The position numbers and the translations under genes were made by a program. This document shows, piece after piece, positions 1,115-54,150 of a stretch of DNA of 64,000 nucleotides (its first letter is position 1; every line of letters begins with the position of its first letter). Source of the stretch: an uncultured Candidatus Saccharibacteria bacterium (GTDB lineage Bacteria; Patescibacteriota; Doudnabacteria; UBA920); contig CAZEKH010000004.1 of assembly GCA_964512925.1 (NCBI GenBank), forward strand, positions 72,392-136,391, given 5' to 3'. Under the pieces are notes generated by a model. The model was not told the DNA's origin, searched no databases, and saw only the letters and a program-made list of their open reading frames with translations.

Positions 1115-1261
1115 AAAGATTGAAGATTTCCTCCTTCGCCAACCTCTTACGCCAAGGCTACAAAGGTCAGGAGGCTTCGAAGGACAAGGAAGATTGAAGA
1201 AGTGTTCCGAACTGAGGAATGATTTTGAAATATGAGAAATTATAATTGTATCTATTTTACC

Positions 1262-1306
1262 AAATAAATAAAAAGCACGCTGTCCCCGTGGCGGTTCGGG
1301 GACAGC
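1262..1306 (-). terminator. Rho-independent terminator of the small GC-rich gene
   Basis: 10-bp stem GCTGTCCCCG/CGGGGACAGC with a T-run on the minus strand. Confidence 0.6.
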
Positions 1307-1316
1307 GTGGGTCGGA

Positions 1317-1631
1317 CTACACTTCAGTGTCAACGAAATGGATGGGGGTTTTGCAGAAGTGGCAGCAAAAGCGGTCACCCCAGAAGATGTTCCGCGATTT
1401 TTTCGGATTCCAAGACAACGGCTGGTTGCACATTGGGTTTGGGCATCTCCAGAATACCTGACCCCATTCTTTTTTGAAATGGGCTTGAACGTATTCCACC
1501 ACAGGGGGCGGTGGTGGCGGTGCGAGTGTTGGGGGGAAATAGGCAATCCTCGTATCACACACGGAAACGTAACCAATCCTCAGTCCGCCCTGGGCAGGAG
1601 CTGCCCCATTGTGGGTGATGACGTAAATCAT
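1317..1631 (-). CDS. Small hypothetical protein (104 aa), Cys-rich with a PPPPPP run, inside a GC-rich island
   Basis: Near-consensus SD (GGCTAAGGAGG) 7 nt before the ATG and its own terminator. Motifs CPNPMC and CCHFC suggest metal binding. Local GC is far above the surroundings. Confidence 0.55.
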   Translation of the reverse strand: MIYVITHNGAAPAQGGLRIGYVSVCDTRIAYFPPTLAPPPPPPVVEYVQAHFKKEWGQVFWRCPNPMCNQPLSWNPKKSRNIFWGDRFCCHFCKTPIHFVDTEV

Positions 1632-1740
1632 ACTAAGGCCTCCTTAGCCTTAGGCGGAGCTTAACAAAGCGCAGAGAGAGAGTCAAGGGCATATCAATTA
1701 TTCAAATTGTTCTAAGTGCTCTAATTGATTTAATAATTTT

Positions 1741-1773
1741 AAAAAAAACAGCCCTGCCGTAGCAGGGCTGTTT
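1741..1773 (-). terminator. Rho-independent terminator downstream of clpC
   Basis: AACAGCCCTGC-CGTA-GCAGGGCTGTT with T8 on the minus strand. Confidence 0.7.
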
Positions 1774-1784
1774 AAATATTTAGT

Positions 1785-4331
1785 TTATGCTGTGACGGCG
1801 ACTCTTTCGTTTTTTGACGTAACTATGATGATTTTGTCTTTTTTGAGTTCCGCCTGGATTTTGCCGCCTTCTTTGACAGCGCCGGCAATGATCTTTTCCG
1901 CCAAGGGGTCTTCCAAAAGATCCTGGACATTTTTCCTTACGTACCTGGCGCCTTGACCCGGGTCAAAGCTTTTGTCGGCGATGTATTTTAGAACATTGGC
2001 GGGAATTTTCAGCTGAATATTTTGCCCCAAGAGGCGGGTTTGAAGTTCAGCAGCCTGGAGCTTGGTGATTTCTTTGAGTTCTTCCATACCCAGGGGCTTG
2101 AACACCACAATTTTATCCACGCGGTTTAGAAATTCAGGACGGAATTCCTGCTTTAAGGTTTCCATTACATTGTCTTTGATTTTTTCATACTCAATTTGCA
2201 AAGCAAATTTTTCGTCCAGTTTTTCTTCCTTGTCCGCAAAACCGATTTTTTGCGCCTGGGTGTTGAGTTCCTGCATCCCGAGGTTGGAAGTCATAATTAT
2301 AATAGTATTTCTAAAAGAGACTTTTTTGCCTTCCGAATCAGTCAGCTGGCCGTCTTCTAAAATCTGTAAAAAAATGTTAAACACATCGGGGTTGGCTTTT
2401 TCAATTTCATCAAACAAAACCACGCTATAAGGTTTTCTTCTTACAGCTTCGGTCAGCCTGCCGCCTTCGCCATAGCCGACATACCCGGCTGGCGCGCCTA
2501 TAAGCCTTGAAACATTGTGTCTTTCCATAAACTCCGACATATCCACCCGGATCAAGGCTTCTTCGTCTTCAAAAACTTCGCGCGCCAAAGCTTTGGCTGT
2601 CTCGGTTTTGCCCACGCCGGTGGGACCTAAGAAAATGAAACTGCCAAGGGGTCTTTTTGGGTTTGAAATGCCGGCGCGGCTTCTTTTTACGGCTTTGGAA
2701 ATTTCGCTGATAGCTTCATTTTGACCGATGATTTTGCTTTTAAGTATATTTTCCAGCTTAGCCAGTTTGGTAACATCGGTTTTAGTGAGTTTGGTAACTG
2801 GGATTTTAGTCATCATTGAAACCGTGTGGGCGATGTCTTCAGCGGTTATATCCCTGACCGGCGGCTGTTCCTGGGCGGCTAAGTTTTTGGAAAGTTCCTG
2901 TTTTTGTTTTAAAAGTTTTTCTTCCTGGCTTTTTAAGTGAATGGCTGTGGTAAAATCCTGAGCCAAAACGGCTTTGGTTTTTTCTTCTTCCAAAGCAGTC
3001 AGATCAGCTTCCAATTTTTTGGTGGCGCGCAGAATTTTGGAAGGGGAGTTGATTGACCTTAAAAAAGCCGCGGTTTCGTCTATCAAATCTACCGCTTTGT
3101 CAGGCAAAAATCTGTCTTGTATATAGCGCGTGGAAAGATCCACTGCCGCAAGCAAAGCCTCGTCCATAATCCTGACATTATGGTGTTTTTCGTAGTTGGG
3201 CTTTAAACCTTTGAGAATCTCAATTGTTTCTTCGCGCGAGGGTTCATCTACCAGCACGGGCTGAAATCTTCTTTCCAAAGCCGCGTCTTTTTCTATGTGC
3301 TGTTTGTATTCAGACAGGGTGGTTGCGCCGATAGCCCGAAGTTCGCCGCGGGCTAAGGCCGGTTTTAAGATATTGGCGGCATCCAGGCTGCCGGTTGTGG
3401 CGCCGGCGCCAACCATAGTGTGCAGTTCATCCACAAACAAAATGGTGTTTTTATCCGCTCTGACTTCTTCTATGATTTGCTTCAGTCGGTTTTCAAATTC
3501 GCCCCTAAACATAGAGCCGGCTACTATCAGAGCCAAATCCAGAGAAAGAATTTTTTTGTCCAAAAGAGAGTCCGGCACTTCGCGTTTAGAGATCGCCAAA
3601 GCCAAGCCCTCAACAATGGCGGTTTTACCCACACCAGCTTCGCCGATAAGCAGGGGATTGTTTTTGGTCCGCCTGTTTAAAATTGAGACCATTCTTTCAA
3701 TTTCCACTTTTCTTCCTACTACAGGATCCACAAGTCCTTGGGCGGCCTTTTTGGTCAGATCGGTAGTAAAATATTCAAGCAAGCTGTTTTTTTTGCCATC
3801 CGGTTTTCCGCCCGGCATCGGCTGGCCGGTTGATGGGTTTGGCATCCCGTTTTCGGATTGTGGAATTTCGGGAAATTTGGAAATATTTTCAAAAATATGC
3901 ATTAAGTCATGCTCAACTTCAGCGGGGTTGACATTCAGTTTCGCCAAAACGGTTTTGGCTTTATTTTGTCTGGCGGAAACCAAGCCATATAAAAAATGCT
4001 CTGTCCCGATGAATTGGTAGCCGAATTGGCTCGCCATAATAGCGGCTTTTTCAATGGCGATTTTTAAATTTTCCGACAGTACCGGTTTCCAGCTGGAAAC
4101 TGTGTTGCCGGAGTTAACGAAAATCAGTTCTTGTTTGACGATTTCCGGACTGAGTTTGGTTTTAGCCAAAATTTCCGAAGCAAAAGAACTTTTTTCGCCG
4201 ATTATGCCGTATAACAAATGTTCAGTCCCGATTTGCCCGTGTTTTAGTTCCTCTGAAACCATTTGCGCGAGGATAAGAGCGTTTTTTGCCCTGGAGGATA
4301 AACGTTCAAGTATTGAAGAAAAATTATTCAT
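1785..4331 (-). CDS. clpC: Class I Hsp100 AAA+ chaperone, ClpC-like (two Clp_N repeats, two AAA modules, short M-domain)
   Basis: Two Walker A motifs (GEAGVGKT, GPTGVGKT), a short coiled-coil middle domain and a KIGF loop. Confidence 0.85.
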   Translation of the reverse strand: MNNFSSILERLSSRAKNALILAQMVSEELKHGQIGTEHLLYGIIGEKSSFASEILAKTKLSPEIVKQELIFVNSGNTVSSWKPVLSENLKIAIEKAAIMASQFGYQFIGTEHFLYGLVSARQNKAKTVLAKLNVNPAEVEHDLMHIFENISKFPEIPQSENGMPNPSTGQPMPGGKPDGKKNSLLEYFTTDLTKKAAQGLVDPVVGRKVEIERMVSILNRRTKNNPLLIGEAGVGKTAIVEGLALAISKREVPDSLLDKKILSLDLALIVAGSMFRGEFENRLKQIIEEVRADKNTILFVDELHTMVGAGATTGSLDAANILKPALARGELRAIGATTLSEYKQHIEKDAALERRFQPVLVDEPSREETIEILKGLKPNYEKHHNVRIMDEALLAAVDLSTRYIQDRFLPDKAVDLIDETAAFLRSINSPSKILRATKKLEADLTALEEEKTKAVLAQDFTTAIHLKSQEEKLLKQKQELSKNLAAQEQPPVRDITAEDIAHTVSMMTKIPVTKLTKTDVTKLAKLENILKSKIIGQNEAISEISKAVKRSRAGISNPKRPLGSFIFLGPTGVGKTETAKALAREVFEDEEALIRVDMSEFMERHNVSRLIGAPAGYVGYGEGGRLTEAVRRKPYSVVLFDEIEKANPDVFNIFLQILEDGQLTDSEGKKVSFRNTIIIMTSNLGMQELNTQAQKIGFADKEEKLDEKFALQIEYEKIKDNVMETLKQEFRPEFLNRVDKIVVFKPLGMEELKEITKLQAAELQTRLLGQNIQLKIPANVLKYIADKSFDPGQGARYVRKNVQDLLEDPLAEKIIAGAVKEGGKIQAELKKDKIIIVTSKNERVAVTA

Positions 4332-4501
4332 ATTTTACAGATCACAAATAGCATAGGTAATACTGATGCTAAATATTAATATATAAGTTACAAGAAAATT
4401 TAATATTTGTTACACTTAAATTATAACATTTATTACAGCATAGATGATCTTATCACTCGTGTCAAGAGAGTGATAATAAAAATGCAAAATTAAATATCAA
4501 A

Positions 4502-4990
4502 ATGCAAAATATTGAGGCAGAAAATTTAGAAAAAGCTTATTCATATTCAATCTATTTGTTGTCTTTGAAGTTGCGCACGGAAGGGGAAATTAGAAATAAA
4601 TTACAAATAAAAAATTATAAATTACAAATTATAGACAGTGTCGTTCAAAAGCTGAAAGAAAATCAATATATAGACGACCAGAGGTATGCGGAGGTTTATG
4701 TGGAGAATTTGAAAAAGTATAAAACTTTCGGTTACTACGGCATAAAAAAGAAACTGATGGAAAAACGTCTGCCTGCCGGGATCATTGAACAGGTTTTAGA
4801 TGAATCTCTGAGCGAGGAGGAAGAGATAAAGATTGCAAAAAGGTATTTAATAAAATATGAAGCAGGAAATATGAAGCAGGAAGCAAAAGTGCAAAAAAAG
4901 GATGAGTTATATCAGGTAAAGCAAAAGCTGGCCAAAAAATTGGCCAGCCGGGGGTTTAGGACGGAAGTTGTAATGCAAATTATACTTTAA
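4502..4990 (+). CDS. recX: RecX family regulatory protein
   Basis: RecX-like three-helix repeats; motif YIDDQRYAEVYV. Confidence 0.65.
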   Translation: MQNIEAENLEKAYSYSIYLLSLKLRTEGEIRNKLQIKNYKLQIIDSVVQKLKENQYIDDQRYAEVYVENLKKYKTFGYYGIKKKLMEKRLPAGIIEQVLDESLSEEEEIKIAKRYLIKYEAGNMKQEAKVQKKDELYQVKQKLAKKLASRGFRTEVVMQIIL

Positions 4991-5354
4991 TTTCATTTCC
5001 TTCCAGATACCATTTATTTCCATTCGATGAATGCACTAAAGAAAATACCCCTGTGCGTGTATTCGAATTTGTTTGGGTATTTCCATATTGATAAGTGATG
5101 GTATATTCTGTTTCAATAATATGTTCTTCGCCTTGTTGTGAGGGTCTTAAATATTCTTCAACTTTACACGGATATTGTTCGCAAAATTCCTTAGGACCCC
5201 TTTGCTGATTAGCATGCGCTGATATTGCAGTTTGTACTATGTTCGGTAAGCGTTCTAAAAATTTTTTCAGTTTTATTTCTTGTACTTTTCCACTGATTAA
5301 ATCCGGGGTTTTTGGACCCTCAGGTGTAACAAAGCCTAAAAGTTTTTTTAACAT
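4980..5354 (-). CDS. Hypothetical protein (124 aa)
   Basis: Intact ORF convergent with recX; the two 3' ends overlap by 11 nt. No recognisable domain. Confidence 0.4.
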   Translation of the reverse strand: MLKKLLGFVTPEGPKTPDLISGKVQEIKLKKFLERLPNIVQTAISAHANQQRGPKEFCEQYPCKVEEYLRPSQQGEEHIIETEYTITYQYGNTQTNSNTRTGVFSLVHSSNGNKWYLEGNEIKV

Positions 5355-36570: not shown

Positions 36571-38256
36571 ATGTTCACTGAAGAAGAAAAAAAAGTTTTA
36601 CAAAAATTTGTCACTTCTGCTGAAGATAATATTTTTGCCATACGCGGGATGCCCGGGATGGTTGGGGCGGCGTATGCCCGTTATAGCAGGGCCAAGGGCG
36701 GCTTTAGAGAAGTATTGCTTAAAGAGTTTATAGAAGCTGGCAATATTGATCCCAAGCACGCTGACGAGCTGATTGCCAGGGTCTTGGTTGCGTACGGGGA
36801 CGACTCAGTGGGCGAGCTTGAAGGCGCGCATATCAGTTTTGAAAAAATATCAATGCTGGCGGCTAAAGAAATTGAAGATCGCAGGATCGGAGGAAGTCCG
36901 ATTGAGCAGTCTACCCGTTATGTTCTCTATGACCAAAAAACCGAGGATGGAAAATGGCTGTATTATAGGGGCGATGATGTGCTTAAAACCTCCTTTGGAA
37001 AATTGTATGAAGAAACGATGGATTTTATTTTTCAGACCTATTCAGAATTAGTTGAGCCTTTAAAAAAACATTTGGAAAATCAAAAGCCGTTGTCTGAAGC
37101 GGAATATGATATAAATGGCGATGGTAAAAAGGAGCTTTTAAGCGAATTGACTGATGACAAGCAGATCAAAGCTTTTAAACAAACTTATACTTTTGAACTG
37201 AGGGCTAAAGCTTGTGATATTTTAAGGTCTTTTTTGCCCATAGCCACCCTGACAAATGTTGGGATGTTTGGAAATGGCAGATTTTATCAAGGATTGATTT
37301 CTTATCTTCTAACTACTGATTTACCGGAAAATCACAGTGTGGCGGCGGGCGCTCAGAAAGCTTTGTCAGAAATTATCCCTCAGTACATAAGACGCGCTCA
37401 GAGAAGCGAGTACATAGCGGAAAATCGCCGGGCGATGTTTAGTTTAACCAAAGAAATGTTAAAAAGCCATAAAGCCCATCCGCCTTTGGAATTGCCAGAG
37501 TTTGTTTTACAAGACAGGGGAGAAAAAATTATAGAAAAAATTATTAAAGAAGGCGGTTTGGTGGAGAATGCTTTAAACCGAGCGGAGGAAATTTCGCTTT
37601 TAGCAATGATGCTATATTCATATAGTGATTTTGCTTTAGCTGATTTGAGACTGATTGTGGAAAATTTGTCTGAAGAGGAAAAAATAAAAATATTCCAAAC
37701 TTATATGGGAGAAAGAAAAACCAGAAGAGATCGTCCCGGCAGGGCTATGGAAGACGGTTATTCGTATAATTTTGATATGGTTACCAATTTTGGGGTTTAT
37801 AAAGATTTACAAAGGCACCGGATGAATACCCAAACCCGCCAGTTGTTTACAACCAAGCTTGGTTTTTTTTACGCGCCTGAACTGGAAGCTGTGGGCGCGA
37901 TGGAAAAAGCGAAATTGTGTGTGGAAAAATCCAATCAATTGTTTGAAAAAATGCATTTGGAAAATCCGGAACTAGCTCAGTATGCGGTGCTGCACGGGCA
38001 TTATATCCGCTGGTATATGGGTTTTAACGACCGAGAAGCTATGCATCTTTTAGAACTTCGTTCAACACCGCAAGGTCATCCGAATTACAGGCAGGCCGCT
38101 CAACAAATGCATAAATTGATCTTAGAAAGGTCAGAGCCAAGAGGTTCGGCTATGAAGTTTGTGGATCACAATGAATACTACTGGTCAAGGGCGGACAGCG
38201 AAGCCAAGCAGCGGGTTAAGGAAGCCGAACTTGATAAAAAATTCGGGAAAATTTAA
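36571..38256 (+). CDS. thyX: Flavin-dependent thymidylate synthase ThyX, tandem double-domain fusion
   Basis: The N half carries RRIGGSPIEQSTRY (RHR-x7-S-x-RY with H replaced by R). The C half carries DLQRHR with an altered Ser region. The protein is about twice the usual ThyX length. Confidence 0.6.
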   Translation: MFTEEEKKVLQKFVTSAEDNIFAIRGMPGMVGAAYARYSRAKGGFREVLLKEFIEAGNIDPKHADELIARVLVAYGDDSVGELEGAHISFEKISMLAAKEIEDRRIGGSPIEQSTRYVLYDQKTEDGKWLYYRGDDVLKTSFGKLYEETMDFIFQTYSELVEPLKKHLENQKPLSEAEYDINGDGKKELLSELTDDKQIKAFKQTYTFELRAKACDILRSFLPIATLTNVGMFGNGRFYQGLISYLLTTDLPENHSVAAGAQKALSEIIPQYIRRAQRSEYIAENRRAMFSLTKEMLKSHKAHPPLELPEFVLQDRGEKIIEKIIKEGGLVENALNRAEEISLLAMMLYSYSDFALADLRLIVENLSEEEKIKIFQTYMGERKTRRDRPGRAMEDGYSYNFDMVTNFGVYKDLQRHRMNTQTRQLFTTKLGFFYAPELEAVGAMEKAKLCVEKSNQLFEKMHLENPELAQYAVLHGHYIRWYMGFNDREAMHLLELRSTPQGHPNYRQAAQQMHKLILERSEPRGSAMKFVDHNEYYWSRADSEAKQRVKEAELDKKFGKI

Positions 38257-39389: not shown

Positions 39390-39481
39390 TTTGGATTTTT
39401 GAAAAAAATTTGGTATAATATAAAATACAGAAAGATTTTTTGAAATAAAAATAAAGATATTTGAGTTTGCAAGGGTCTTTT

Positions 39482-40162
39482 ATGATAAGATTTGAAAATG
39501 TTACAAAAAAATATCAAGATTCGCAAGCTGCTTTAAAAAATATTAACCTGCAAATTCATCGCGGGGAGTTTATCTCTTTAGTGGGGCTTTCGGGCGCGGG
39601 CAAGTCAACTTTTCTTAAAATCATTATTGGTGAAGAACCAATAGAAGAAGGCAGGATTTTGATAGATGATGTTGACATCTCAATGGTAAAAAAAAGCCAT
39701 TTACCGCTTTTAAGAAGGAAAATCGGGGTAGTGTTTCAGGATATGAAGTTGCTGCCCAGGCGCACCGCTTTTGAAAATGTGGCGTTTGCGATGGAAGTAT
39801 GCGGACACAGGGAAGAAAAAATAGTTGAGGAAGTGCCGAAGATTTTAGAACTGGTAGGTTTGTCACAAAAACAAAATCATTTTCCCGACCAGATGTCCGG
39901 CGGTGAAAAACAGCGCGTTGCCATAGCCAGAGCATTGTCGCACAGGCCGGTCTTGCTGTTGGCTGACGAACCGACCGGAAACCTTGACGAAGTAAATGCC
40001 GGCGAGGTTTTGGATTTGCTGCTGAAAATAAACCGTTTGGGCACAACTGTGCTTTTAGCCACCCACGCGGCGGATTTGGTAAATAAAATAAATAAACGGG
40101 TGATTACTCTGGAAAATGGCCAAATCACCTTTGAGCAGGAAAGAGGAGTATATAAACTATAA
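39482..40162 (+). CDS. ftsE: Cell-division ABC ATPase FtsE
   Basis: MIRFENVTKKY, Walker A GLSGAGKST, LSGGEKQR. Confidence 0.9.
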   Translation: MIRFENVTKKYQDSQAALKNINLQIHRGEFISLVGLSGAGKSTFLKIIIGEEPIEEGRILIDDVDISMVKKSHLPLLRRKIGVVFQDMKLLPRRTAFENVAFAMEVCGHREEKIVEEVPKILELVGLSQKQNHFPDQMSGGEKQRVAIARALSHRPVLLLADEPTGNLDEVNAGEVLDLLLKINRLGTTVLLATHAADLVNKINKRVITLENGQITFEQERGVYKL

Positions 40163-41080
40163 ATGTTAGATTCTATTTCAATTTTTCGCGTGTTTAAATC
40201 CGGGTTGATGAATTTTGTCAGAAACCCCTGGTTGTCCGTCGGCGCCGGGATGGTGATGACTATTACCCTGGTTATTTTTTCTTTGCTGTTTATGCTTTTT
40301 ACCGTGACGAATTACTCAATCAAAAGCATACAAAATAAAGTTGACATCAGCGTGTATTTTAAAAACGGACTGTCTGAAGAAAAAATCAAAGCTATACAAG
40401 TTGAAGTTGAAAAGGATCCGGCAGTTAAGGAAACGCGTTATATTTCGGCTGCTCAGGCGTTTGAATTGTTCAAAGAAAGGCATAAATATGATCCCCAGAT
40501 CACCCAATCGTTAAACGAGCTGACAGAAAACCCTCTGCCCGCGACTTTAAATGTTAAAGCCAATAATCTGGAGGATTACACAAAAATCGCAGAACGTTTG
40601 CAAAAGCCAGAGTATAAAGACTTTGTTGAAAAAGTGAATTACGAAGACAGTCGCGATTTGATAGATAAGCTGACTAAAATTTTAAAGTATATAGTTTCGG
40701 GAGGTATAGCTTTGGTCGTGGTGTTTTCCTTGATTGCGATTTTGGTTATCTTTAACACTATTACACTGACTATTTACCACCGGAAGGAAGAAGTGGAAAT
40801 AATGCGTTTGGTCGGCGCTACTAACTGGTATATCCGCGGACCGTTTTTGGTTGAAAGTCTGCTTTATGCCCTGTCCGGCACATTTTTAAGCGCTATATTG
40901 TTTGTGCCTGTGTTTACCAATGTGCTGCCAAAAATCGCCGTTTTTATAGATCCGGAGATTGGGCTTTTTAGCAGCAATCTGTTTAATTTTGTTTTTGTAG
41001 TTTTGATGATGCTGATAATTTCTTGTATTTTAGCCTCGCTGTCCACGTTTTTAGCCATAAGGAAATATCTTAAAATATAG
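40163..41080 (+). CDS. ftsX: Cell-division ABC permease-like protein FtsX
   Basis: Four TM segments with a large extracellular loop; directly follows ftsE. Confidence 0.8.
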   Translation: MLDSISIFRVFKSGLMNFVRNPWLSVGAGMVMTITLVIFSLLFMLFTVTNYSIKSIQNKVDISVYFKNGLSEEKIKAIQVEVEKDPAVKETRYISAAQAFELFKERHKYDPQITQSLNELTENPLPATLNVKANNLEDYTKIAERLQKPEYKDFVEKVNYEDSRDLIDKLTKILKYIVSGGIALVVVFSLIAILVIFNTITLTIYHRKEEVEIMRLVGATNWYIRGPFLVESLLYALSGTFLSAILFVPVFTNVLPKIAVFIDPEIGLFSSNLFNFVFVVLMMLIISCILASLSTFLAIRKYLKI

Positions 41081-45889: not shown

Positions 45890-46291
45890 ATGTTTATGTA
45901 TGAAAAATTGAAGAAAAACTGGCCGGAGATACAGCCTAAGCTCGTTTGGATAGCGACTTCTTTAGTAATGTTTGGCGCCGGATTTGGGGCAGGCAACTAC
46001 GACAGAAAAAATTCCTATAAAAGATTTCAAGTAAAACCACAGGTTAATTATACCACACAAAAGCCTCAAGGGGAGGTAAAGGCCGTATCCACCCCGGCTC
46101 CTGTAAAAGAGGCAGTAACCGGCAAAACTGATCAGCCTGCGGCTGACTGCAAGATTAAGGGCAACATCGGAACCTCAGGCAAGATTTACCATATTCCGGG
46201 AGGACGCTCGTACAAAATAGTTAAGCCTGAACAATGTTTTAACACTGAGGAAGAAGCAGTCAGTGCGGGTTTTAGAAAAGCTTTGCAATAA
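45890..46291 (+). CDS. Hypothetical membrane-anchored protein with a C-terminal Cys-pair domain (CKIKG...YHIPGG...CF...AGFRKA)
   Basis: One TM segment; conserved-looking C-terminal 50 aa. Confidence 0.4.
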   Translation: MFMYEKLKKNWPEIQPKLVWIATSLVMFGAGFGAGNYDRKNSYKRFQVKPQVNYTTQKPQGEVKAVSTPAPVKEAVTGKTDQPAADCKIKGNIGTSGKIYHIPGGRSYKIVKPEQCFNTEEEAVSAGFRKALQ

Positions 46292-47618: not shown

Positions 47619-47732
47619 TAATATATAAATTAACAAAATTATTTCTTTTTATCTCTTTGTTTTTGAATTAGTTTACCGTGCTTTCCGTTTAAAAGTTTTT
47701 CAAAAATAAAATTTATACATTGTATTAAACTT

Positions 47733-47762
47733 AAAACCCAAATGAATATTCATTTGGGTTTT
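47733..47762 (-). terminator. Perfect 30-nt palindrome AAAACCCAAATGAATATTCATTTGGGTTTT; probably the terminator of the minus-strand hydrolase operon
   Basis: Perfect inverted repeat with flanking A/T runs. Confidence 0.55.
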
Positions 47763-47841
47763 ATTGGCATATTATTGTTCCTATACTTTTTATTTTTAGC
47801 GGCAGTGAGGTATTACTTGTCCCCTATCTTTGTATAAAGGC

Positions 47842-48807
47842 CTAATTTTTACAGGCCGTGTCTAAATCTATGTGGATGTGGTCATATTTACGGGCATCAG
47901 TACCTGGGTTAACCTGAAGCCCTAACGAGCTGGCCTTTGCTTCAGCTGCCTTGCCTGCCGGGCTGGATCTGAAAGCTTGTGAACCGTCGGCAAAATCTAC
48001 TGCGCAAAAACGGTAATGATAAGAATTTTTAGCATGTTGGCCGGAGGATACGGAAGAGATTTGTATTTTGCCTTTAGCTGATCCGGCCTTGCATATTTCC
48101 ACCACAGCGGCAAAAATTTCCGGCTGGATACGCGCCGCTTCTTTTTGAAACCTGGCTGCGTCCTGCCAGCCGCAGCCGGCTTGGGTTATGAGCGCTGGGT
48201 CATTTGACCCTAAAGCGTTGAAAATTTGTCCAGAGGAATTTTTCACTCCAGTAACGTTTCCGCTAGAATCTATAACTTGTGTCCAGTCATCCCACCCCGT
48301 TGTATCCAAAGCCACGCTCGGCAGCTGTAGTTTTGGGAACTTCACTAAATCTGGGTTAATGGTTTTAAGGAGTAAATAACCACCCATCAGTAGCACAAGT
48401 CCGGTTAAGCTGGTAGCCAGCATATCTTTGGCTTTGGAAACAGATTCATTATTGCCCTCGGCTGACATATATAAGTATCCGGCTATAACTATGAAAAAGA
48501 CTGAGATGGTGGCCCCAACAATGATGGCAAGGCGGTAAAGCTTGTTGATACAGCTGTATAGATCTCCTTGCCCTGAGACTTTGACTGTGCTTCCGTTAAC
48601 TATGTTTGCGTTTCCTGAAATATTGCTGTTATCCGAAGGCGCGCAGAGATACTTTTTTATCTGATCTGAAACTCCTGTATAGCTGGAGCCTTTTTGGGTG
48701 TAGGGGTTTTGGGTTTGGGCAAAAACTAAATTTACATTTGCCAGTAAAATAGCAAAGCTGAAGAAAAGAAAAAAGACCAGTTTGATTTTTTGTTTTGAGA
48801 ATATCAT
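47842..48807 (-). CDS. Paralogue A: signal peptide plus two-helix membrane hairpin (TrbC/VirB2-pilin-like) fused to a C-terminal M15-type zinc peptidase (VanY/L-Ala-D-Glu peptidase-like)
   Basis: N-terminal 170 aa nearly identical to paralogue B. C-terminal zinc ligands in SYHYRFCAVDF and DHIHIDL. Confidence 0.6.
   Translation of the reverse strand: MIFSKQKIKLVFFLFFSFAILLANVNLVFAQTQNPYTQKGSSYTGVSDQIKKYLCAPSDNSNISGNANIVNGSTVKVSGQGDLYSCINKLYRLAIIVGATISVFFIVIAGYLYMSAEGNNESVSKAKDMLATSLTGLVLLMGGYLLLKTINPDLVKFPKLQLPSVALDTTGWDDWTQVIDSSGNVTGVKNSSGQIFNALGSNDPALITQAGCGWQDAARFQKEAARIQPEIFAAVVEICKAGSAKGKIQISSVSSGQHAKNSYHYRFCAVDFADGSQAFRSSPAGKAAEAKASSLGLQVNPGTDARKYDHIHIDLDTACKN
48300..48745. repeat. Direct repeat copy 1 (about 450 bp, roughly 90% identical to 49690-50130)
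   Basis: Aligned by eye: ggttttaaggagtaaataaccacccatca...gtgtaggggtttt. Confidence 0.8.
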
Positions 48808-49232
48808 TTTATGCAGGTTACTGACAGGTTGTTTTCCTGATTTTTTATAAGTTCCATATTTGCAGCCTTTAGAATAGGGTCAAAAAATACCGGGTTATTA
48901 AAAGAGCTTTTTGGATTTGAAGTTGTAAAAGGTTTAGCGCATTTAAGCCAAAGCAAATCGCCTGTTGTATTCAATTCTACTTGTCCGTAGTTTTCTAATT
49001 CTGGCAAAGACAATGTTTTGGGATAATCCTGATAAATCAATTCCGCTTTAAGTTGTTGATTTTTTTCAGTTAAAGACAGAATATAACTTTCTATGGTAGA
49101 AGTTGGTGTAATGTTTGTAGTTACAGGGTTCTTGATTGTTTGCGGTGTCTTCTCAACAAACAGAAGAGCGCCTATGGCAATTAGACCAAAAAATATTAGG
49201 ATAGAAAGTAAAATAATTATAAACTTATTCAT
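48804..49232 (-). CDS. Small membrane-anchored hypothetical protein (142 aa) between the two paralogues
   Basis: N-terminal TM segment; 4-nt overlap with the downstream gene. Confidence 0.45.
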   Translation of the reverse strand: MNKFIIILLSILIFFGLIAIGALLFVEKTPQTIKNPVTTNITPTSTIESYILSLTEKNQQLKAELIYQDYPKTLSLPELENYGQVELNTTGDLLWLKCAKPFTTSNPKSSFNNPVFFDPILKAANMELIKNQENNLSVTCIK

Positions 49233-49242
49233 AATATATTAT

Positions 49243-50211
49243 TTAGGCTCGAAATTTGTTAAGCCACGATGCAACAGCATCAACACCCTTATCCCAGGTG
49301 CCAAAATTTTGTTTGTTGCCGGCATCGTCATTTCCAACGTTGCCTGGGTTGAAGGTTTGCGCTCCAAGCCCTTTGGTTCCTAGCGAACTGTCGGTTTGCA
49401 TTATGGCAACCATAAGTTTTGCATCTACATTATATTTTGCCGCCGAAGCAAGAATCATTGAGCCGGTTAAGGGAGTTTTTGGAGCTGCTTTTTTTAAATA
49501 TGAATCTATGGTTTGGGGCGATGAAAAATCAATATTTTTCAAATCGTTATATATTTGGGTAACCAAAGCCTCATGATTAGAGGCAGTGGCATAAGGACCA
49601 ATATTATAGCCAGCTAAAATATGCGTCTGGGTTGAATTTCCCGCGCCTCCCCCTCCTCGCGTTGAGGTAAAAGAATAAGTATTCCACTCCGCAGCATCCA
49701 AAGCCACGCTTGGCAGTCTCAGTGTTGGGAATTTTACCAAATCCGGGTTAATGGTTTTAAGGAGTAAATAACCACCCATCAAAAGCACAAGTCCGGTTAA
49801 ACTGGTTGTTAATATATCTTTGGCTTTAGACACAGATTCGTTATTACCCTCGGCTGACATATACAAGTACCCGGCTATAACGATAAAAAAGACTGAGATG
49901 GTAGCTCCGACTATGATGGCAAAGCGGTAAAGTTTGTTGATACAGCTATACAAATCTCCTTGTCCTGAGATTTTGACCGTGCTTCCGTTAACTATATTTG
50001 CATCTCCTGAGATATTGTTGTTATCCGAAGGCGCGCAAAGAAACTTTTTTATTTGATCTGAAACTCCTGTGTAGCTTGAACCTTTTTGGGTGTAGGGGTT
50101 TTGACCAGCTGCGGGCAAAGCGTCAGTTTGGGCAAAGACATTGGAAACATTGCCAAAAAATATTCCAAACAGAATATAACAAAAGAAAAAAATTTGAAAT
50201 TGTTTTTTCAT
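49243..50211 (-). CDS. Paralogue B: the same signal peptide and TrbC/VirB2-like hairpin, fused to a C-terminal GH73/FlgJ-like (or lytic-transglycosylase-like) peptidoglycan glycosidase domain
   Basis: C-terminal AAKYNVDAKLMVAIMQTDSSLG...NPGNVGN resembles the glucosaminidase motif AQAILESGWG...NNLFG, with D at the acid position. Confidence 0.55.
   Translation of the reverse strand: MKKQFQIFFFCYILFGIFFGNVSNVFAQTDALPAAGQNPYTQKGSSYTGVSDQIKKFLCAPSDNNNISGDANIVNGSTVKISGQGDLYSCINKLYRFAIIVGATISVFFIVIAGYLYMSAEGNNESVSKAKDILTTSLTGLVLLMGGYLLLKTINPDLVKFPTLRLPSVALDAAEWNTYSFTSTRGGGGAGNSTQTHILAGYNIGPYATASNHEALVTQIYNDLKNIDFSSPQTIDSYLKKAAPKTPLTGSMILASAAKYNVDAKLMVAIMQTDSSLGTKGLGAQTFNPGNVGNDDAGNKQNFGTWDKGVDAVASWLNKFRA
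49690..50130. repeat. Direct repeat copy 2
   Basis: See copy 1. Confidence 0.8.
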
Positions 50212-50217
50212 TTTAGA

Positions 50218-51561
50218 TTATAAAAAATCCAGCGGGTTGTAGGTGTAGCCAAAAGGCAGGCGGTAAGAACCGTAAATGTTGCTGTATTTACCGTTTGAAA
50301 CCCCAAATCCTTCGGCGTCGTAGACGCCGAAATGTATGTGGTATCCCCTTTCCGGCCCATATAATTTTTTAGTGGTATTGCCTGTGTTGCCTTCGTATCC
50401 GACAATATCTCCCTGCAATACTTTTTGTCCGGGTTTTACTTTATAACTTCGTAAGTGTGCATATAAAGTTACGATGCCTCTTGATCCGCCGGAGGTGCTG
50501 ATGTTATGTTTGATAGCAACCCAGTTTCCATAAGCTTGATCTGAAGAGTCTGTGTATAAAACTTCTCCGTCTGCGGCCGCATATACGGGCTGTCCAGCCG
50601 GGGCTGCTATATCGATCCCATTATGAAAATTGTAACCCAAGGCGGTAAAGCCTGTATTTCCGTATTTTTGAGTTAAAATCCCGTCCATTGGCCAGGCTAA
50701 AACTCCTTTTTTTGCCGCTATGGTTTTTTTACCGAGTTTTGTCCTTATTTGTTCGTCAAGTTCATTGATTTCTTTTTGAATATCCTGCTCTTCTTTTTTG
50801 CTTGTGGCTAAAAGTTTTTGAAAATTGGATTCCAAACCTCTGGTTTGAGCGAGCAATTTTTCTTTTTGAGAACGTTGGGTGACCAGCGATTCCTTGCTTA
50901 TTTGCAGCTGCTCTTTTAGCTCATTTAAATTTTTTAACTGTATTGTTAATTCTTTTTGTTGTTGTTCCAGTCTTGCTTTCAGGTCTTTTATTTTTTTTAC
51001 CAGCTGGAAAATTTTATCTTGATAACTGTTATTGTACTCTATTTGGTCTAAAAATTCGGAAAGATTTTTCGCGCCCAATGTGGATTGGAGTTGGTATTGC
51101 TGGTCAAATTCATTTAGTTCCACTATCAGCTGGCTCAAAACTTTTTTGTTGTCCGCAATTTCTTTTATTTTTTGCTCTATGAGCTTTTCCGTTTCCGCTA
51201 TTTGGAGTTGAGTATCTTCAATTTGGGTGTTTTTTGCTTCTATTTGCAGTTCCATAGACGCAATTTCCCGGTCAAAAATGAAAACTTCGTTTTTGAGTGA
51301 ATTGGAAGCGTCTCTGGCTTTGGCGATTTGTTCGGTGTATTGCTTGATTTGTTTATTTAATTGTTCCAGCTTTTGCTGGCGCTGGTCTTTTTCGTTTTGC
51401 AGTTTAGTTGCGGCGTCTGTAGCGTCATCGGCTTTAGTTAAAAAAGCGCTCAAACAAAACATAAACAAAAAAACCGGCAAAGCAAACAAAGCCAACATTT
51501 TTCGTTTATTTTTTGTTTCAATGAGGTTAATCATTAAAATAATTATACCATAAATTTTCAA
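50218..51561 (-). CDS. Peptidase M23 (LytM) with an N-terminal TM/signal segment and a long coiled coil (EnvC/PcsB-like architecture)
   Basis: HNGIDIAAPAGQP, YAHL and HIHFGV M23 motifs with about 250 aa of coiled coil. The start may instead be at 51498. Confidence 0.85.
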   Translation of the reverse strand: MKIYGIIILMINLIETKNKRKMLALFALPVFLFMFCLSAFLTKADDATDAATKLQNEKDQRQQKLEQLNKQIKQYTEQIAKARDASNSLKNEVFIFDREIASMELQIEAKNTQIEDTQLQIAETEKLIEQKIKEIADNKKVLSQLIVELNEFDQQYQLQSTLGAKNLSEFLDQIEYNNSYQDKIFQLVKKIKDLKARLEQQQKELTIQLKNLNELKEQLQISKESLVTQRSQKEKLLAQTRGLESNFQKLLATSKKEEQDIQKEINELDEQIRTKLGKKTIAAKKGVLAWPMDGILTQKYGNTGFTALGYNFHNGIDIAAPAGQPVYAAADGEVLYTDSSDQAYGNWVAIKHNISTSGGSRGIVTLYAHLRSYKVKPGQKVLQGDIVGYEGNTGNTTKKLYGPERGYHIHFGVYDAEGFGVSNGKYSNIYGSYRLPFGYTYNPLDFL

Positions 51562-51603
51562 AAAATAAAAACCCGCAATTTTTTTTCAATGCGGGTTTTT
51601 TGT
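51562..51603 (-). terminator. Terminator after gltX, immediately before the M23 gene
   Basis: AAACCCGCA-N12-TGCGGGTTT with a T-run on the minus strand. Confidence 0.65.
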
Positions 51604-51611
51604 TTTATTTA

Positions 51612-53202: not shown

Positions 53203-54150
53203 TCAAACCTGGGAAGATTTAATTTTGTATTTAATCAGTTCGGATACAAGGCCCCAAGTTGCGTGGAAAATCCTTTTATATCTTTTGGGCTGGGTTAGAA
53301 GTCTCCATAACCATTCCAGACCCATTTGAGCTAGTATTTTTGGAGGCTTTGGGTATATGCCGGCTAAATAATCAAAAGTTCCGCCAACGCCCATAACCAA
53401 ATTGATGCTTGAAAGTTTTGGCAAATTTTCCAAAATCCACTTCTCCTGGCGGATAGGTCCAAACGCAACAAATAAAATATCAGGGTTTGCGATGTTTATA
53501 TCATCAATAATTGACACATCCTCGGGATTTTTGTTTGAATATTGAACCCTGATTTTTTGATCTGCTGATCTACTGATCAACTGTTCCGCTGCCAATTTCG
53601 GAGTTTCCCCAAATCCTCCAAGTAAATAAATTGACCAGTTATTTTTTTCCGCAAGCTCTGCAATGTCAGAAACTAGTTCTCGTCCCGGGATTCTTTCTAT
53701 TTGCGTACCAAGCCCCCTCCCCTGCCCTCCCCCGCCTGTGGCGGGAGATGGAGAAAAAAAAGGAAAGGCAAATTTGATTAGCACAGCTAACGCTTGAAAG
53801 TAGGCTTTAAAAATTATTTTCCAGTGGTTAACATTTTCTAGCTTGCCTTTGAACTTATTTTTTTCCCCTCTCCCCGAATCAGATGGGGGGGGAGAGTAGG
53901 GTGGGGGTGTGGGTGGTATTTCCAAATATGTTTTTGCCCACAAAATCCCAATACCGTCAGCTAGGGCAATGTCAGCTTTGTTTAGCATTTCTAAAATTTG
54001 TTTGTCGCGTAAAGCAGCATACAAAAATTCTGAGTACAAAGTCGTTACCCAGGTTTTTTGTTTGTTTCTAATATTTTTTTCTAATTCTTTCAGTAATTCA
54101 GGTTTAGAAAAGTTGTTAATCTTAAGTCCCGCAACATCAATTTTTTGCAT
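53203..54150 (-). CDS. WecB/TagA/CpsF family glycosyltransferase carrying an in-frame insertion of about 70 aa
   Basis: Conserved ADGIGILWA and VMGVGGTFDY blocks. The insert is PTPPPYSPPPSDSGRG...GGGGQGRGLG. Confidence 0.7.
   Translation of the reverse strand: MQKIDVAGLKINNFSKPELLKELEKNIRNKQKTWVTTLYSEFLYAALRDKQILEMLNKADIALADGIGILWAKTYLEIPPTPPPYSPPPSDSGRGEKNKFKGKLENVNHWKIIFKAYFQALAVLIKFAFPFFSPSPATGGGGQGRGLGTQIERIPGRELVSDIAELAEKNNWSIYLLGGFGETPKLAAEQLISRSADQKIRVQYSNKNPEDVSIIDDINIANPDILFVAFGPIRQEKWILENLPKLSSINLVMGVGGTFDYLAGIYPKPPKILAQMGLEWLWRLLTQPKRYKRIFHATWGLVSELIKYKIKSSQV
53709..53917. mobile_element. MITE-like insertion of about 210 bp inside the tagA-like gene: C/G-rich inverted termini around an AT-rich core, read through in frame
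   Basis: The right end contains CTCTCCCC-N12-GGGGAGAG (family core). The left end contains CCCGCC-TGT-GGCGGG. Confidence 0.55.

Follow-up and report, generated by a model that had tools for sequence, protein, structure and literature searches.

Patescibacteria carry VirB2-like pilins of the PF18895 family, known from the pilin arrays of Southlakia epibionticum and TM7x, in which a signal peptide is followed by two long hydrophobic helices joined by a short polar loop, with the signature AGYxYMxxxGNxxxxxxAK; the stand-alone pilins of this family are encoded next to PrgI/VirB3 and VirB4. The VirB1-like hydrolases of monoderm T4SS are described in the literature as multidomain proteins that draw on LytM/M23, SLT, CHAP and glucosaminidase domains and on domains of the DD-peptidase type. 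In S. epibionticum, virB4 is immediately followed by a pair of essential genes that specify a Hedgehog/DD-peptidase domain and PF01832/lysozyme-like domains (PMC10633639; PMC12102498), and a coiled-coil CHAP protein is encoded directly beside ftsEX (PMC10633639). The operon described here, found in a 64-kb stretch of DNA (hereafter the window) from an uncultured, ultra-small Doudnabacteria-type member of the Patescibacteria, shares with its orthologues the enzyme repertoire of the VirB1-like hydrolases (PrgK, pIP501 TraG, CD419, TrsG; SEML1_0006, SEML1_0007), including exactly the GH73 and Hedgehog/DD-peptidase folds that adjoin virB4 in S. epibionticum, but it is unlinked to virB4 and each activity resides on a separate protein. 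Two of its products, proteins ii and iv, resemble the Patescibacteria pilins in topology and signature; unlike stand-alone pilins, they are encoded outside a T4SS cluster and continue, past an additional INPDL junction motif, into an enzyme head that makes up the C-terminal 150 aa or so. The features are as follows:

51562-51606, minus strand: intrinsic terminator (stem-loop, then U-run) of gltX, the gene upstream of the operon; operon 5' boundary
51542-51550, minus strand: candidate extended -10 promoter element, TGGTATAAT, read from the sequence
50218-51498, minus strand: EnvC-like M23 (LytM) metallopeptidase (PF01551) with a coiled coil and, at the N-terminus, a signal peptide or anchor
49243-50211, minus strand: protein ii, 322 aa, with signal peptide, Cys-containing N-region, T4SS-pilin-type hairpin, linker and GH73-like head
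49750-49962, minus strand: helical hairpin of ii, aa 84-154, motif AGYLYMSAEGNxESVSKAK (AF2, PF18895)
49246-49626, minus strand: head of ii, aa 196-322, GH73-type glucosaminidase/lysozyme-like fold
48804-49232, minus strand: protein iii, 142 aa, with N-terminal TM anchor and extracytoplasmic domain of about 100 aa, two conserved Cys
47842-48807, minus strand: protein iv, 321 aa, with an ii-type N-module and a Hedgehog/DD-peptidase-type (LAS, M15-like) zinc peptidase head
48358-48570, minus strand: helical hairpin of iv, aa 80-150 (AF2, PF18895)
47845-48300, minus strand: head of iv, aa 170-321, a zinc peptidase of the LAS group; motifs SxHxxxCAVD and HIH, Cys conserved at four positions
47722-47768, minus strand: operon-ending intrinsic terminator (hairpin folding)
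39461-41080, plus strand: ftsE-ftsX (ABC_tran; FtsX_ECD and FtsX), listed as context because it may provide the coiled-coil M23 protein with its partner in the membrane

The four tightly packed genes proposed by the initial annotation were found exactly where it had placed them: the M23 gene and ii are separated by 6 nt, ii and iii by 10 nt, and iii and iv overlap by 4 nt (ATGA). The base composition of the operon is not foreign. Both flanking terminators fold strongly, at -15.6 kcal/mol (z = -4.2) for that of gltX and -17.5 kcal/mol (z = -6.1) for that ending the operon, with 0 of 200 shuffles folding equally well in either case. The full M23 reading frame extends from 50218 to 51561, where a TTG could serve as start; the true start is likely the ATG at 51498, preferred because the extended -10 box (51550-51542), which a consensus promoter scan did not single out, lies downstream of the TTG. 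Dozens of homologues and synteny conserved in about 48 other genomes support ii and iv as real genes. All four products carry export or anchor signals, and the operon is best explained as an extracytoplasmic peptidoglycan-cutting set.

Proteins ii and iv are 70% identical across 218 aligned residues (92.6% in the core N-module) and have unrelated heads; their DNA is 87% identical across 423 nt, up to the head junction, and in both the motif L-K-x-I-N-P-D-L-x-x-F sits between hairpin and enzyme head. The AF2 models place the helices at residues 84-119 and 124-154 in ii and at 80-115 and 120-150 in iv. Conserved Cys pairs in the N-region and in the head of iv support an extracytoplasmic location. 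PF18895 matches ii at aa 87-145 with 26.7 bits and iv at aa 83-141 with 26.3 bits, right at the cut-off of 26.6; orthologues of ii and iv score up to 34.7 bits, and 101 of 138 relatives match at E <= 1e-4. The hairpin sequence originally quoted for ii is present and can be aligned with stand-alone pilins of 78-147 aa that have the AGYxYMxxxGNxxxxxxAK signature in common with it; one pilin of 132 aa, from a Doudnabacteria-labelled genome, has its C-terminal end exactly at the junction motif (INPELVQF). Relatives with three to eight tandem hairpins also exist. Structural matches of the two-helix hairpin include many unrelated hairpins, which counts against a pilin-specific reading. The profile and signature support the claimed TrbC/VirB2-like nature of the hairpin, as a VirB2/T4SS-pilin-type module of the PF18895 family. 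To our knowledge, VirB1-like hydrolases have a single N-terminal TM segment or signal peptide; ii and iv are instead anchored by the pilin hairpin.

The C-terminal domain of ii had been proposed to be a peptidoglycan hydrolase, and its fold is indeed GH73-like, with a Pfam score under the gathering threshold; Foldseek found a resemblance to the T6SS effector Tge2 (4kt3_A, probability 0.77). The closest known enzymes are GH73 N-acetylglucosaminidases (Atl, LytB, FlgJ-type) and family-1 lytic transglycosylases such as MltC, whose motif ...AIMQTESSF can be aligned with ii around the catalytic residue. Unlike these enzymes, ii has D274 at the position of the catalytic Glu; this substitution (MQTDSS) had been read correctly, the Asp is invariant in 19 homologues and, with it in place of Glu, the head could be restricted to binding its substrate. 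Protein iii, for which neither a family nor a structure match was found, evolves fast (23-38% identity), adjoins the 3' side of the GH73-like gene in eight of eight loci and is missing wherever the head is of another type. Judged by this gene order, iii is paired specifically with the GH73-like head; the suggestion that the small gene marks a general immunity slot fails, most other heads being partnerless.

For iv, the M15 zinc peptidase claimed earlier proved to be of the LAS/M15 type, and the model (pLDDT > 90, AF2) predicts a Hedgehog/DD-peptidase-type fold: Foldseek ranks Hedgehog N-terminal domains first (probability ~1.0), with VanXYc and VanY lower, and the profile aligns with SLHYEGRAVD of Shh and, at E = 0.28, with the T5 L-Ala-D-Glu peptidase. 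As in LAS peptidases (MEROPS M15; VanY/VanXY, phage L-Ala-D-Glu peptidases), the H-x6-D...H metal ligands are invariant (H264, D271 and H312, in 30 homologues), and the head has SxHxxGxAxD-like and HIH motifs, as does Shh; unlike them, the head has four extra conserved Cys and matches no Pfam M15 model.

In the profile search the M23 domain reaches 90.2 bits (cut-off 28.7), its catalytic residues (H313, D317, H369, H408 and H410) are intact, and the HxxxD and HxH motifs are kept in 44 of the 46 orthologues. Like FtsEX-EnvC/PcsB/CwlO hydrolases, the protein carries its hydrolase domain at the C-terminal side of a long coiled coil, and it aligns full length (residues 9-377) with the EnvC chain of the Vibrio cholerae FtsEX-EnvC structure (8tzk_E). 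EnvC itself activates other enzymes and is catalytically dead; the EnvC/PcsB-like label thus holds for the architecture and not for the active site, which is complete here. The reported ftsEX genes are present in the window, 9 kb from the M23 gene, the FtsX product having an extracellular domain, and they occupy a matching relative position in two of the compared loci (L001 and L061).

The search for this gene order in related genomes recovered gltX, M23 and pilin-module gene(s) in about 48 Doudnabacteria-type loci, with the M23 gene always directly upstream of the pilin-module genes in the loci compared. The idea of a constant module with exchangeable heads was strongly borne out: among heads recognised by Pfam, to which this survey refers (many have no Pfam match), the orthologous position holds SLT, SLT_3, CHAP, Amidase_2, M15_4, C39-like and GDSL domains, nearly all of them peptidoglycan hydrolase types, with C39-like and GDSL less certain. 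Hedgehog-like heads and most other types are directly followed by a convergent cysteine-desulfurase gene, and uncharacterised same-strand genes follow at a few loci (SLT, L059; GDSL, L060; M15_4, L041). Within one genome the N-modules are 81-100% identical (12 of 12 genomes), with a between-genome median of 53%; in published pilin arrays the mean identity is 25%. Within-genome identity of the N-module DNA reaches 100% and stops at the junction, and this homogenisation implies a constant partner. The architecture, thought to be undescribed, has no describing paper in the literature searched, but it is not rare, with more than 100 clusters at 50% identity in public data.

In other Patescibacteria, related proteins are linked to T4SS genes. 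In L052, the gene for a stand-alone relative immediately precedes those for PrgI, a TraC-like protein and VirB4; in L056, a divergent pilin module carries an orthologue of the ii head (E = 5e-61) inside a T4SS cluster, in the order PrgI, TraC-like, VirB4, two other genes, ii-head orthologue; and in L057 and L058 the fusions adjoin radA/recG, 7 kb from VirB4, L058 having a tandem Glucosaminidase and M15_4 pair, both on pilin modules. The folds of the iv and ii heads both recur in the domains encoded downstream of virB4 in Southlakia. VirB4, PrgI and TraC-like genes were found neither in the window nor in the roughly 48 Doudnabacteria-type loci. For a T4SS in Doudnabacteria, the only indications are a preprint statement and what appears to be a table flag.

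The explanation that we favour, tentatively and at slightly less than even confidence, is that ii and iv open the wall together with the M23 protein, as VirB1-like hydrolases that dock through a VirB2-like hairpin. Once Sec has exported the proteins and the signal peptides have been cleaved off, the hairpin would insert N-out/C-out, so that the heads lie at the wall, outside the membrane. It would act as a constant docking element through which interchangeable heads reach a single, species-specific partner; this is most probably the site of T4SS or pilin assembly, where the hairpin module would have its origin. A glycan-cutting head, a peptide-cutting head and the M23 cross-link cutter would then locally open the peptidoglycan, a VirB1-like role, in the cell's own wall for passage of the machine and/or in that of the host cell to which these epibionts attach. 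Protein iii may regulate or restrain the glycosidase, and recombination inside the homogenised N-module would, in the course of evolution, replace one head by another. PF18895 membership, the pilin signature, the T4SS-linked relatives and the hydrolase folds of the heads count for T4SS docking; against it count the lack of VirB4, PrgI and TraC-like genes in the window and at the roughly 48 loci, a housekeeping locus, PF18895 scores at the cut-off and an invariant neighbour with the architecture of FtsEX-controlled division hydrolases. Moreover, PF18895 proteins are not known from any experiment to assemble into a pilus.

The main alternative, possible if rather doubtful, is that the operon encodes division or housekeeping autolysins, the M23 protein being an FtsEX partner of the EnvC, PcsB or CwlO kind and ii and iv septal hydrolases, with a pilin-derived hairpin co-opted as anchor or as interface with M23 or FtsX and any peptidoglycan-cleaving head sufficing. 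The EnvC alignment, the FtsX extracellular domain and the lack here of a coiled-coil hydrolase gene beside ftsX, where Southlakia has its CHAP protein, fit this proposal, as do the invariant gltX-M23-fusion order with tiny intergenic gaps in a housekeeping neighbourhood, the absence of nearby T4SS genes and of an immunity-like gene for most heads, and the homogenised N-modules, which equally suit a common interface with M23 or FtsX. However, the hairpin retains the full pilin signature and has not decayed to a generic anchor; in other Patescibacteria, orthologous heads or fusions are encoded inside T4SS clusters or close to them, and an adjacent M23 gene is lacking; and in Southlakia the division hydrolase is separate from the T4SS hydrolases, whose set the folds of ii and iv match. 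Head types also turn over fast from one related genome to the next, an unusual pattern if the enzymes belong to the division core. Moreover, the candidate partner hydrolases vary in fold and, unlike those of FtsEX-EnvC systems, are not Amidase_3, and EnvC-type activation, which needs a specific amidase helix, is inapplicable to seven unrelated head folds.

A special case of T4SS docking, in which the fusions are minor pilins that co-polymerise and display hydrolases on the surface or tip of a pilus boring through the host wall, appears unlikely: pilin family membership, a topology with exposed C-terminus and the tandem-hairpin relatives agree with it, but no PF18895 protein is known to form filaments, a 150-aa head on each subunit may not fit a filament lattice, the structural hairpin match is non-specific, and neither a pilin array nor a T4SS is near the operon. 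Least likely, and very improbable, is a polymorphic antibacterial toxin cassette whose constant module would deliver exchangeable lytic heads to competitors or hosts, with iii as immunity protein, since the features shared with CdiA-CT, Rhs and T6SS Tge/Tgi systems (a constant N-part, a sharp junction motif at which recombination tracts end, swappable enzyme domains), the likeness of the ii head to Tge2 and a fast-evolving iii strictly tied to one head type are set against a partner gene for the GH73-like head only, with most heads abutting the cysteine-desulfurase gene, no orphan head or immunity arrays, a fixed, syntenic core-genome position in every genome, which rules against the mobile or orphan-rich cassette first envisaged, a base composition that is not foreign, and no secretion or toxin markers in Pfam, NCBIfam and PHROGs scans. 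Absent from descriptions in the literature searched, the pilin hairpin with swappable wall-cutting heads is a lineage-wide design.

The four co-directional ORFs lie on the minus strand where the initial annotation had placed them, with intergenic gaps of 6 nt and 10 nt and an overlap of 4 nt between iii and iv. Strong terminators were confirmed on both sides, as was the presence of ftsEX in the window. The features are as follows:

51562-51606, terminator of the upstream gltX gene, -15.6 kcal/mol, z = -4.2
51550-51542, candidate extended -10 box TGGTATAAT, 3' of the TTG with which the M23 ORF begins
50218-51561, minus strand, M23 gene, ORF from TTG; likelier start, ATG at 51498
49243-50211, minus strand, ORF of ii
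48804-49232, minus strand, ORF of iii
47842-48807, minus strand, ORF of iv
47722-47768, terminator closing the operon, -17.5 kcal/mol, z = -6.1
39461-41080, ftsEX, with the extracellular domain of FtsX present

The ATG at 51498 is probably the start of the M23 gene, because the extended -10 box sits downstream of the TTG. The other genes of the window are housekeeping genes (ClpB-type ATPase, SecA, GatAB, PBP2, ThyX, PyrG, RF-2, L9, cysteine desulfurase, GltX, WecG, Def, Fmt and YceG) and its base composition is even; a mobile or phage origin of the operon was rejected on the grounds of this ordinary composition and of the fixed synteny described below. Three of the surrounding ORFs have features of their own. 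The WecG/TagA-family glycosyltransferase (53203-54150, minus strand) contains an internal low-complexity insert rich in Pro and Gly, PPTPPPYSPPPSDSGRGEKN...SPSPATGGGGQGRGLG, and, unlike its relatives of 437-485 aa (loci L001, L059-L061), is not fused to a NUDIX domain. The top ThyX (Thy1) match of a 561-aa ORF (36571-38256, plus strand) covers residues 397-517, with a second matching stretch, and therefore much of its N-terminal part may have no assignment. Finally, a 133-aa ORF (45890-46291, plus strand) had no Pfam match in our scan; its positional equivalents in relatives carry a PF27542 (ArfC) flag.

The M23 protein matches PF01551 at 90.2 bits (cut-off 28.7), and its HxxxD and HxH motifs are complete (H313, D317, H369, H408 and H410), the metal and catalytic residues being kept in 44 of 46 orthologues. 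Residues 9-377 align with EnvC in the FtsEX-EnvC complex of Vibrio cholerae (8tzk chain E; E = 3.9e-7), and residues 43-280 also match SMC-like and other coiled-coil entries. The EnvC-like architecture initially proposed, a long N-terminal coiled coil followed by a C-terminal LytM domain, is borne out, but the degenerate LytM active site of EnvC-type proteins is not found. Because all of the metal and catalytic residues are present, the protein looks EnvC-shaped and yet, unlike EnvC, catalytically competent.

Proteins ii and iv are, as first noticed, paralogues with swapped heads (the C-terminal enzyme domains): they align over 218 residues with 70% identity, and in the core of the shared N-terminal module the identity is 92.6%; their DNA is 87% identical across 423 nt, ending at the head junction, past which the heads are unrelated. 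Both have the topology of the pilin family, with a signal peptide, two long hydrophobic helices (residues 80-115 and 120-150 of iv, 84-119 and 124-154 of ii, in AlphaFold (AF2) models) and a short polar loop. The prediction of the signal peptide draws on the sequence and on the putative cleavage site, where an Ala (A30) is almost invariant and the next residue is usually Gln. Scores against PF18895 (T4SS_pilin) are marginal, at 26.7 bits for ii and 26.3 bits for iv with a gathering threshold of 26.6 bits; orthologues score 27.7-34.7 bits, and 101 of 138 representative relatives match at E <= 1e-4. The TrbC match of the module has E = 0.028, and one of the same 138 relatives also matches TrbC at 1.5e-13. 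The assignment of the hairpin to the VirB2/TrbC pilin type is upheld by these matches. Moreover, stand-alone pilins of 78-147 aa can be aligned with the module, with which they share the signature AGYxYMxxxGNxxxxxxAK; since this signature is common to stand-alone, T4SS-linked pilins, a generic two-TM anchor was rejected as an explanation of the hairpin. The C-terminal end of a 132-aa pilin from a Doudnabacteria-labelled genome is LQTINPELVQFKTPKKF, the motif right after which, in ii and iv, the linker toward the head begins.

A relaxed search of the window for additional pilin modules returned ii and iv only. Across the whole library, 159 representatives matched the module profile at E <= 1e-30 and 3,845 did so at E <= 1e-10; the best 150 are mostly fusions of 280-580 aa, and the fusion architecture is thus common in metagenomes. 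Some relatives are 'poly-pilins' with three to eight tandem pilin-type hairpins per polypeptide (database representatives P0183, of 820 aa, P0178, P0173, P0205 and P0197). The top PF18895 E-value among the relatives scanned was 2.2e-67. Twelve genomes have two fusions each, and in every one of them the two core modules are 81-100% identical, with a between-genome median of 53%; published pilin arrays of Patescibacteria, by contrast, have a mean identity of 25% (PMC12102498). In four genomes the DNA identity of the repeats is 100% along 372-479 nt, up to the junction, which indicates that gene conversion is ongoing or that the heads were replaced recently.

The head of iv (pLDDT > 90) has Hedgehog N-terminal domains as its first structural matches (probability ~1.0), followed by VanXYc and VanY. 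In the iv-family profile, NSYHYxxCAVD is aligned to SLHYEGRAVD of Shh, and the metal triad H-x6-D...H (H264, D271 and H312) is invariant in 30 homologues. On the basis of the predicted fold, the profile alignment and this triad, the head is a predicted LAS/M15-type zinc peptidase of the Hedgehog/DD-peptidase kind. The M15 zinc peptidase first recognized in iv is thus retained as to fold and triad but not as to family model, since no Pfam M15 model matches iv at E <= 1, although some heads at the orthologous position in relatives do match Peptidase_M15_4. For the head of ii (pLDDT mostly 85-96), a GH73/FlgJ-like assignment stands in so far as the fold is GH73/lysozyme-like; the PF01832 score, 19.4 bits (E = 0.0018), is under the gathering threshold of 30.2. 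The profile ...lmqvDSsl aligns with ...AIMQTESSF of MltC in such a way that D274 occupies the position of the catalytic Glu, which the head does not have. The Asp noticed initially within MQTDSS is therefore real, and because it is invariant across 19 homologues it is a trait of the family and not the decay of a single gene. Against PHROGs, iv had no match and ii a weak 'transglycosylase' match, and looking up the exact sequence of iv returned no contig. The tandem pilin-hydrolase fusions of another Patescibacterium are immediately preceded by a DsbA/thioredoxin-like gene (L058:9336-9998), which fits the conserved Cys pairs of the N-terminal module and of the iv-type head.

Our scan of species-representative genomes gave 53 loci, most of them labelled Candidatus Doudnabacteria and the remainder 'uncultured Saccharibacteria' with identical synteny. 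Many of the third-party assemblies with Doudnabacteria-type synteny (within L003-L051) are titled 'uncultured Candidatus Saccharibacteria', labels that seem either generic or mistaken. A search for the operon order in related genomes, suggested by the initial annotation, revealed conserved synteny: essentially all Doudnabacteria-type loci have gltX, the coiled-coil M23 gene and then one or two genes with the N-terminal module, usually followed by a convergent cysteine-desulfurase gene. At least eight head types occur on the one module at this one locus. Hedgehog-like heads are found in 18 ORFs (the window and two duplicate loci counted in) and GH73-like Asp heads at eight loci; SLT, SLT_3, CHAP, Amidase_2, Peptidase_M15_4, Peptidase_C39_2 and GDSL heads also occupy the orthologous position, as do several that Pfam does not recognize. 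The order in the window (M23, ii-type, iii, another fusion) recurs in L025, L027 and L036, and the alternative order M23, iv-type, ii-type, iii-type is found in L001, L002, L005 and L008; the two are consistent with rearrangement via the repeated module (window 47842-50211 compared with the relatives).

In protein iii, an N-terminal transmembrane anchor is joined to a domain of about 100 aa in which two Cys residues are conserved. The protein had no match in Pfam, NCBIfam, PHROGs or a PDB profile search, and a word-based homologue search returned iii itself only. A iii-type gene lies 3' of the GH73-like gene in 8/8 loci and is absent elsewhere, most of the other heads having no co-directional downstream gene. 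This co-occurrence disposes of the suggestion that the small gene occupies a general immunity slot.

Links to T4SSs come from relatives. A stand-alone relative of the hairpin holds the classical virB2 position in L052 (order pilin, PrgI, TraC-like, VirB4), and in L056, a Zambryskibacteria contig, a divergent pilin module carries an orthologous GH73-like Asp head (E = 5e-61) in the order PrgI, TraC-like, VirB4, two further genes, fusion. Tandem pilin+Glucosaminidase and pilin+M15_4 fusions adjoin radA in L058, and in L057 a 473-aa protein annotated 'pilin' has radA/recG on one side and, 7 kb away, a VirB4 gene on the other; radA/recG co-localise with T4SSs in a published survey, in which about 40% of assemblies have pilins apart from virB4 (PMC12102498). 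The VirB4 of L056 (4538-8332), 1264 aa long, contains an intein (Intein_splicing, LAGLIDADG_3). L052 is a 7.5-kb contig labelled Ktedonobacterales (Chloroflexota); its Patescibacteria-like T4SS cluster (1250-5305), the VirB4 of which is 35% identical to a Parcubacteria VirB4, could have been acquired by horizontal transfer or misbinned. VirB4, PrgI and TraC-like genes are absent from the window and from every Doudnabacteria-type locus, so that co-occurrence with VirB4, proposed as a check, holds for the L052 and L056 relatives but not for ii and iv themselves. No T4SS gene is hidden near the operon: the VirB4, PrgI and TraC-like proteins of L056 and L057, searched by tblastn in the window and in every locus, matched L052 only. 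We found no description of a T4SS in Doudnabacteria in the literature searched; the T4SS survey flags a Doudnabacteria genome 'Yes' in a column whose heading is unconfirmed.

In Southlakia epibionticum, the two genes directly 3' of virB4, both scored essential or growth-defective, encode proteins with PF01832/lysozyme-like and cysteine-peptidase domains (SEML1_0006) and a Hedgehog/DD-peptidase domain (SEML1_0007); at a separate locus, the gene that comes after ftsE-ftsX encodes a coiled-coil CHAP protein and is essential (PMC10633639). By virtue of these domains the heads of ii and iv correspond in fold, one to one, to the T4SS-linked hydrolases of the only Patescibacterium that has been studied genetically. 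The resemblance of the M23 protein is to the FtsEX partner class.

The operon encodes a predicted exported peptidoglycan-hydrolase set in which a constant pilin-family hairpin carries exchangeable heads; one head type has a specific partner gene (iii), the N-terminal module is homogenised within genomes, and the coupling of the fusions to an EnvC-shaped, predicted-active M23 protein is invariant. The hairpin may be a constant docking element for a species-specific partner, and the enzymes would open the peptidoglycan locally. We tentatively favour a VirB1-like role at a T4SS or pilin assembly site, because of the pilin family membership, the parallel with Southlakia and the contexts in which relatives are found. 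Its chief rival, possible but in our judgement less probable, is a set of division autolysins acting with FtsEX and the M23 protein, the hairpin having been co-opted as anchor or interface; the EnvC-like neighbour gene, the housekeeping locus and the lack of T4SS genes nearby all speak for it. It is unlikely that the fusions are true minor pilins, extracted by a T4SS and co-assembled so that an enzyme-bearing pilus surface or tip drills the host wall: the EnvC-like M23 protein and iii would then keep the enzymes off the producer's own wall and head swapping would follow host peptidoglycan chemistry, but the structural support, the hairpin match, is non-specific. A polymorphic toxin/immunity cassette, the logic first suggested, is improbable, since the variable C-terminal domains on a constant N-terminal module are indeed there but most heads, the GH73-like type excepted, have no cognate immunity gene and the locus has a fixed core position.

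VirB2-like pilins of Patescibacteria (PMC12102498, PMC12857230, PMC10633639), VirB1-like hydrolases and FtsEX-EnvC systems are already known. In the literature searched we found no description of a pilin module fused to peptidoglycan hydrolases, of the lineage-wide coupling of such fusions to an EnvC-like M23 protein, of head turnover with concerted evolution of the module, or of a GH73-like head in an Asp variant that has a small partner of its own. The architecture is in this sense undescribed, as had been supposed, but the proteins are abundant in databases, some annotated simply 'pilin'.

A large share of bacterial diversity belongs to the Patescibacteria (CPR), which in the cases studied are attached to host cells; in the one genetically studied system, the T4SS and pilin array are essential for this lifestyle. 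The pilin-hydrolase proteins provide a concrete, testable tie between the pilin family and the breaching of a wall, the cell's own or the host's, and represent an unusual modular hydrolase design, in which recombination at a fixed junction swaps the heads on a homogenised membrane module. The replacement of the catalytic Glu by an invariant Asp in the GH73-like head poses a separate enzymological question. If the proteins act in division instead, they would be a new kind of FtsEX partner set, with a bearing on how minimal-genome bacteria divide.
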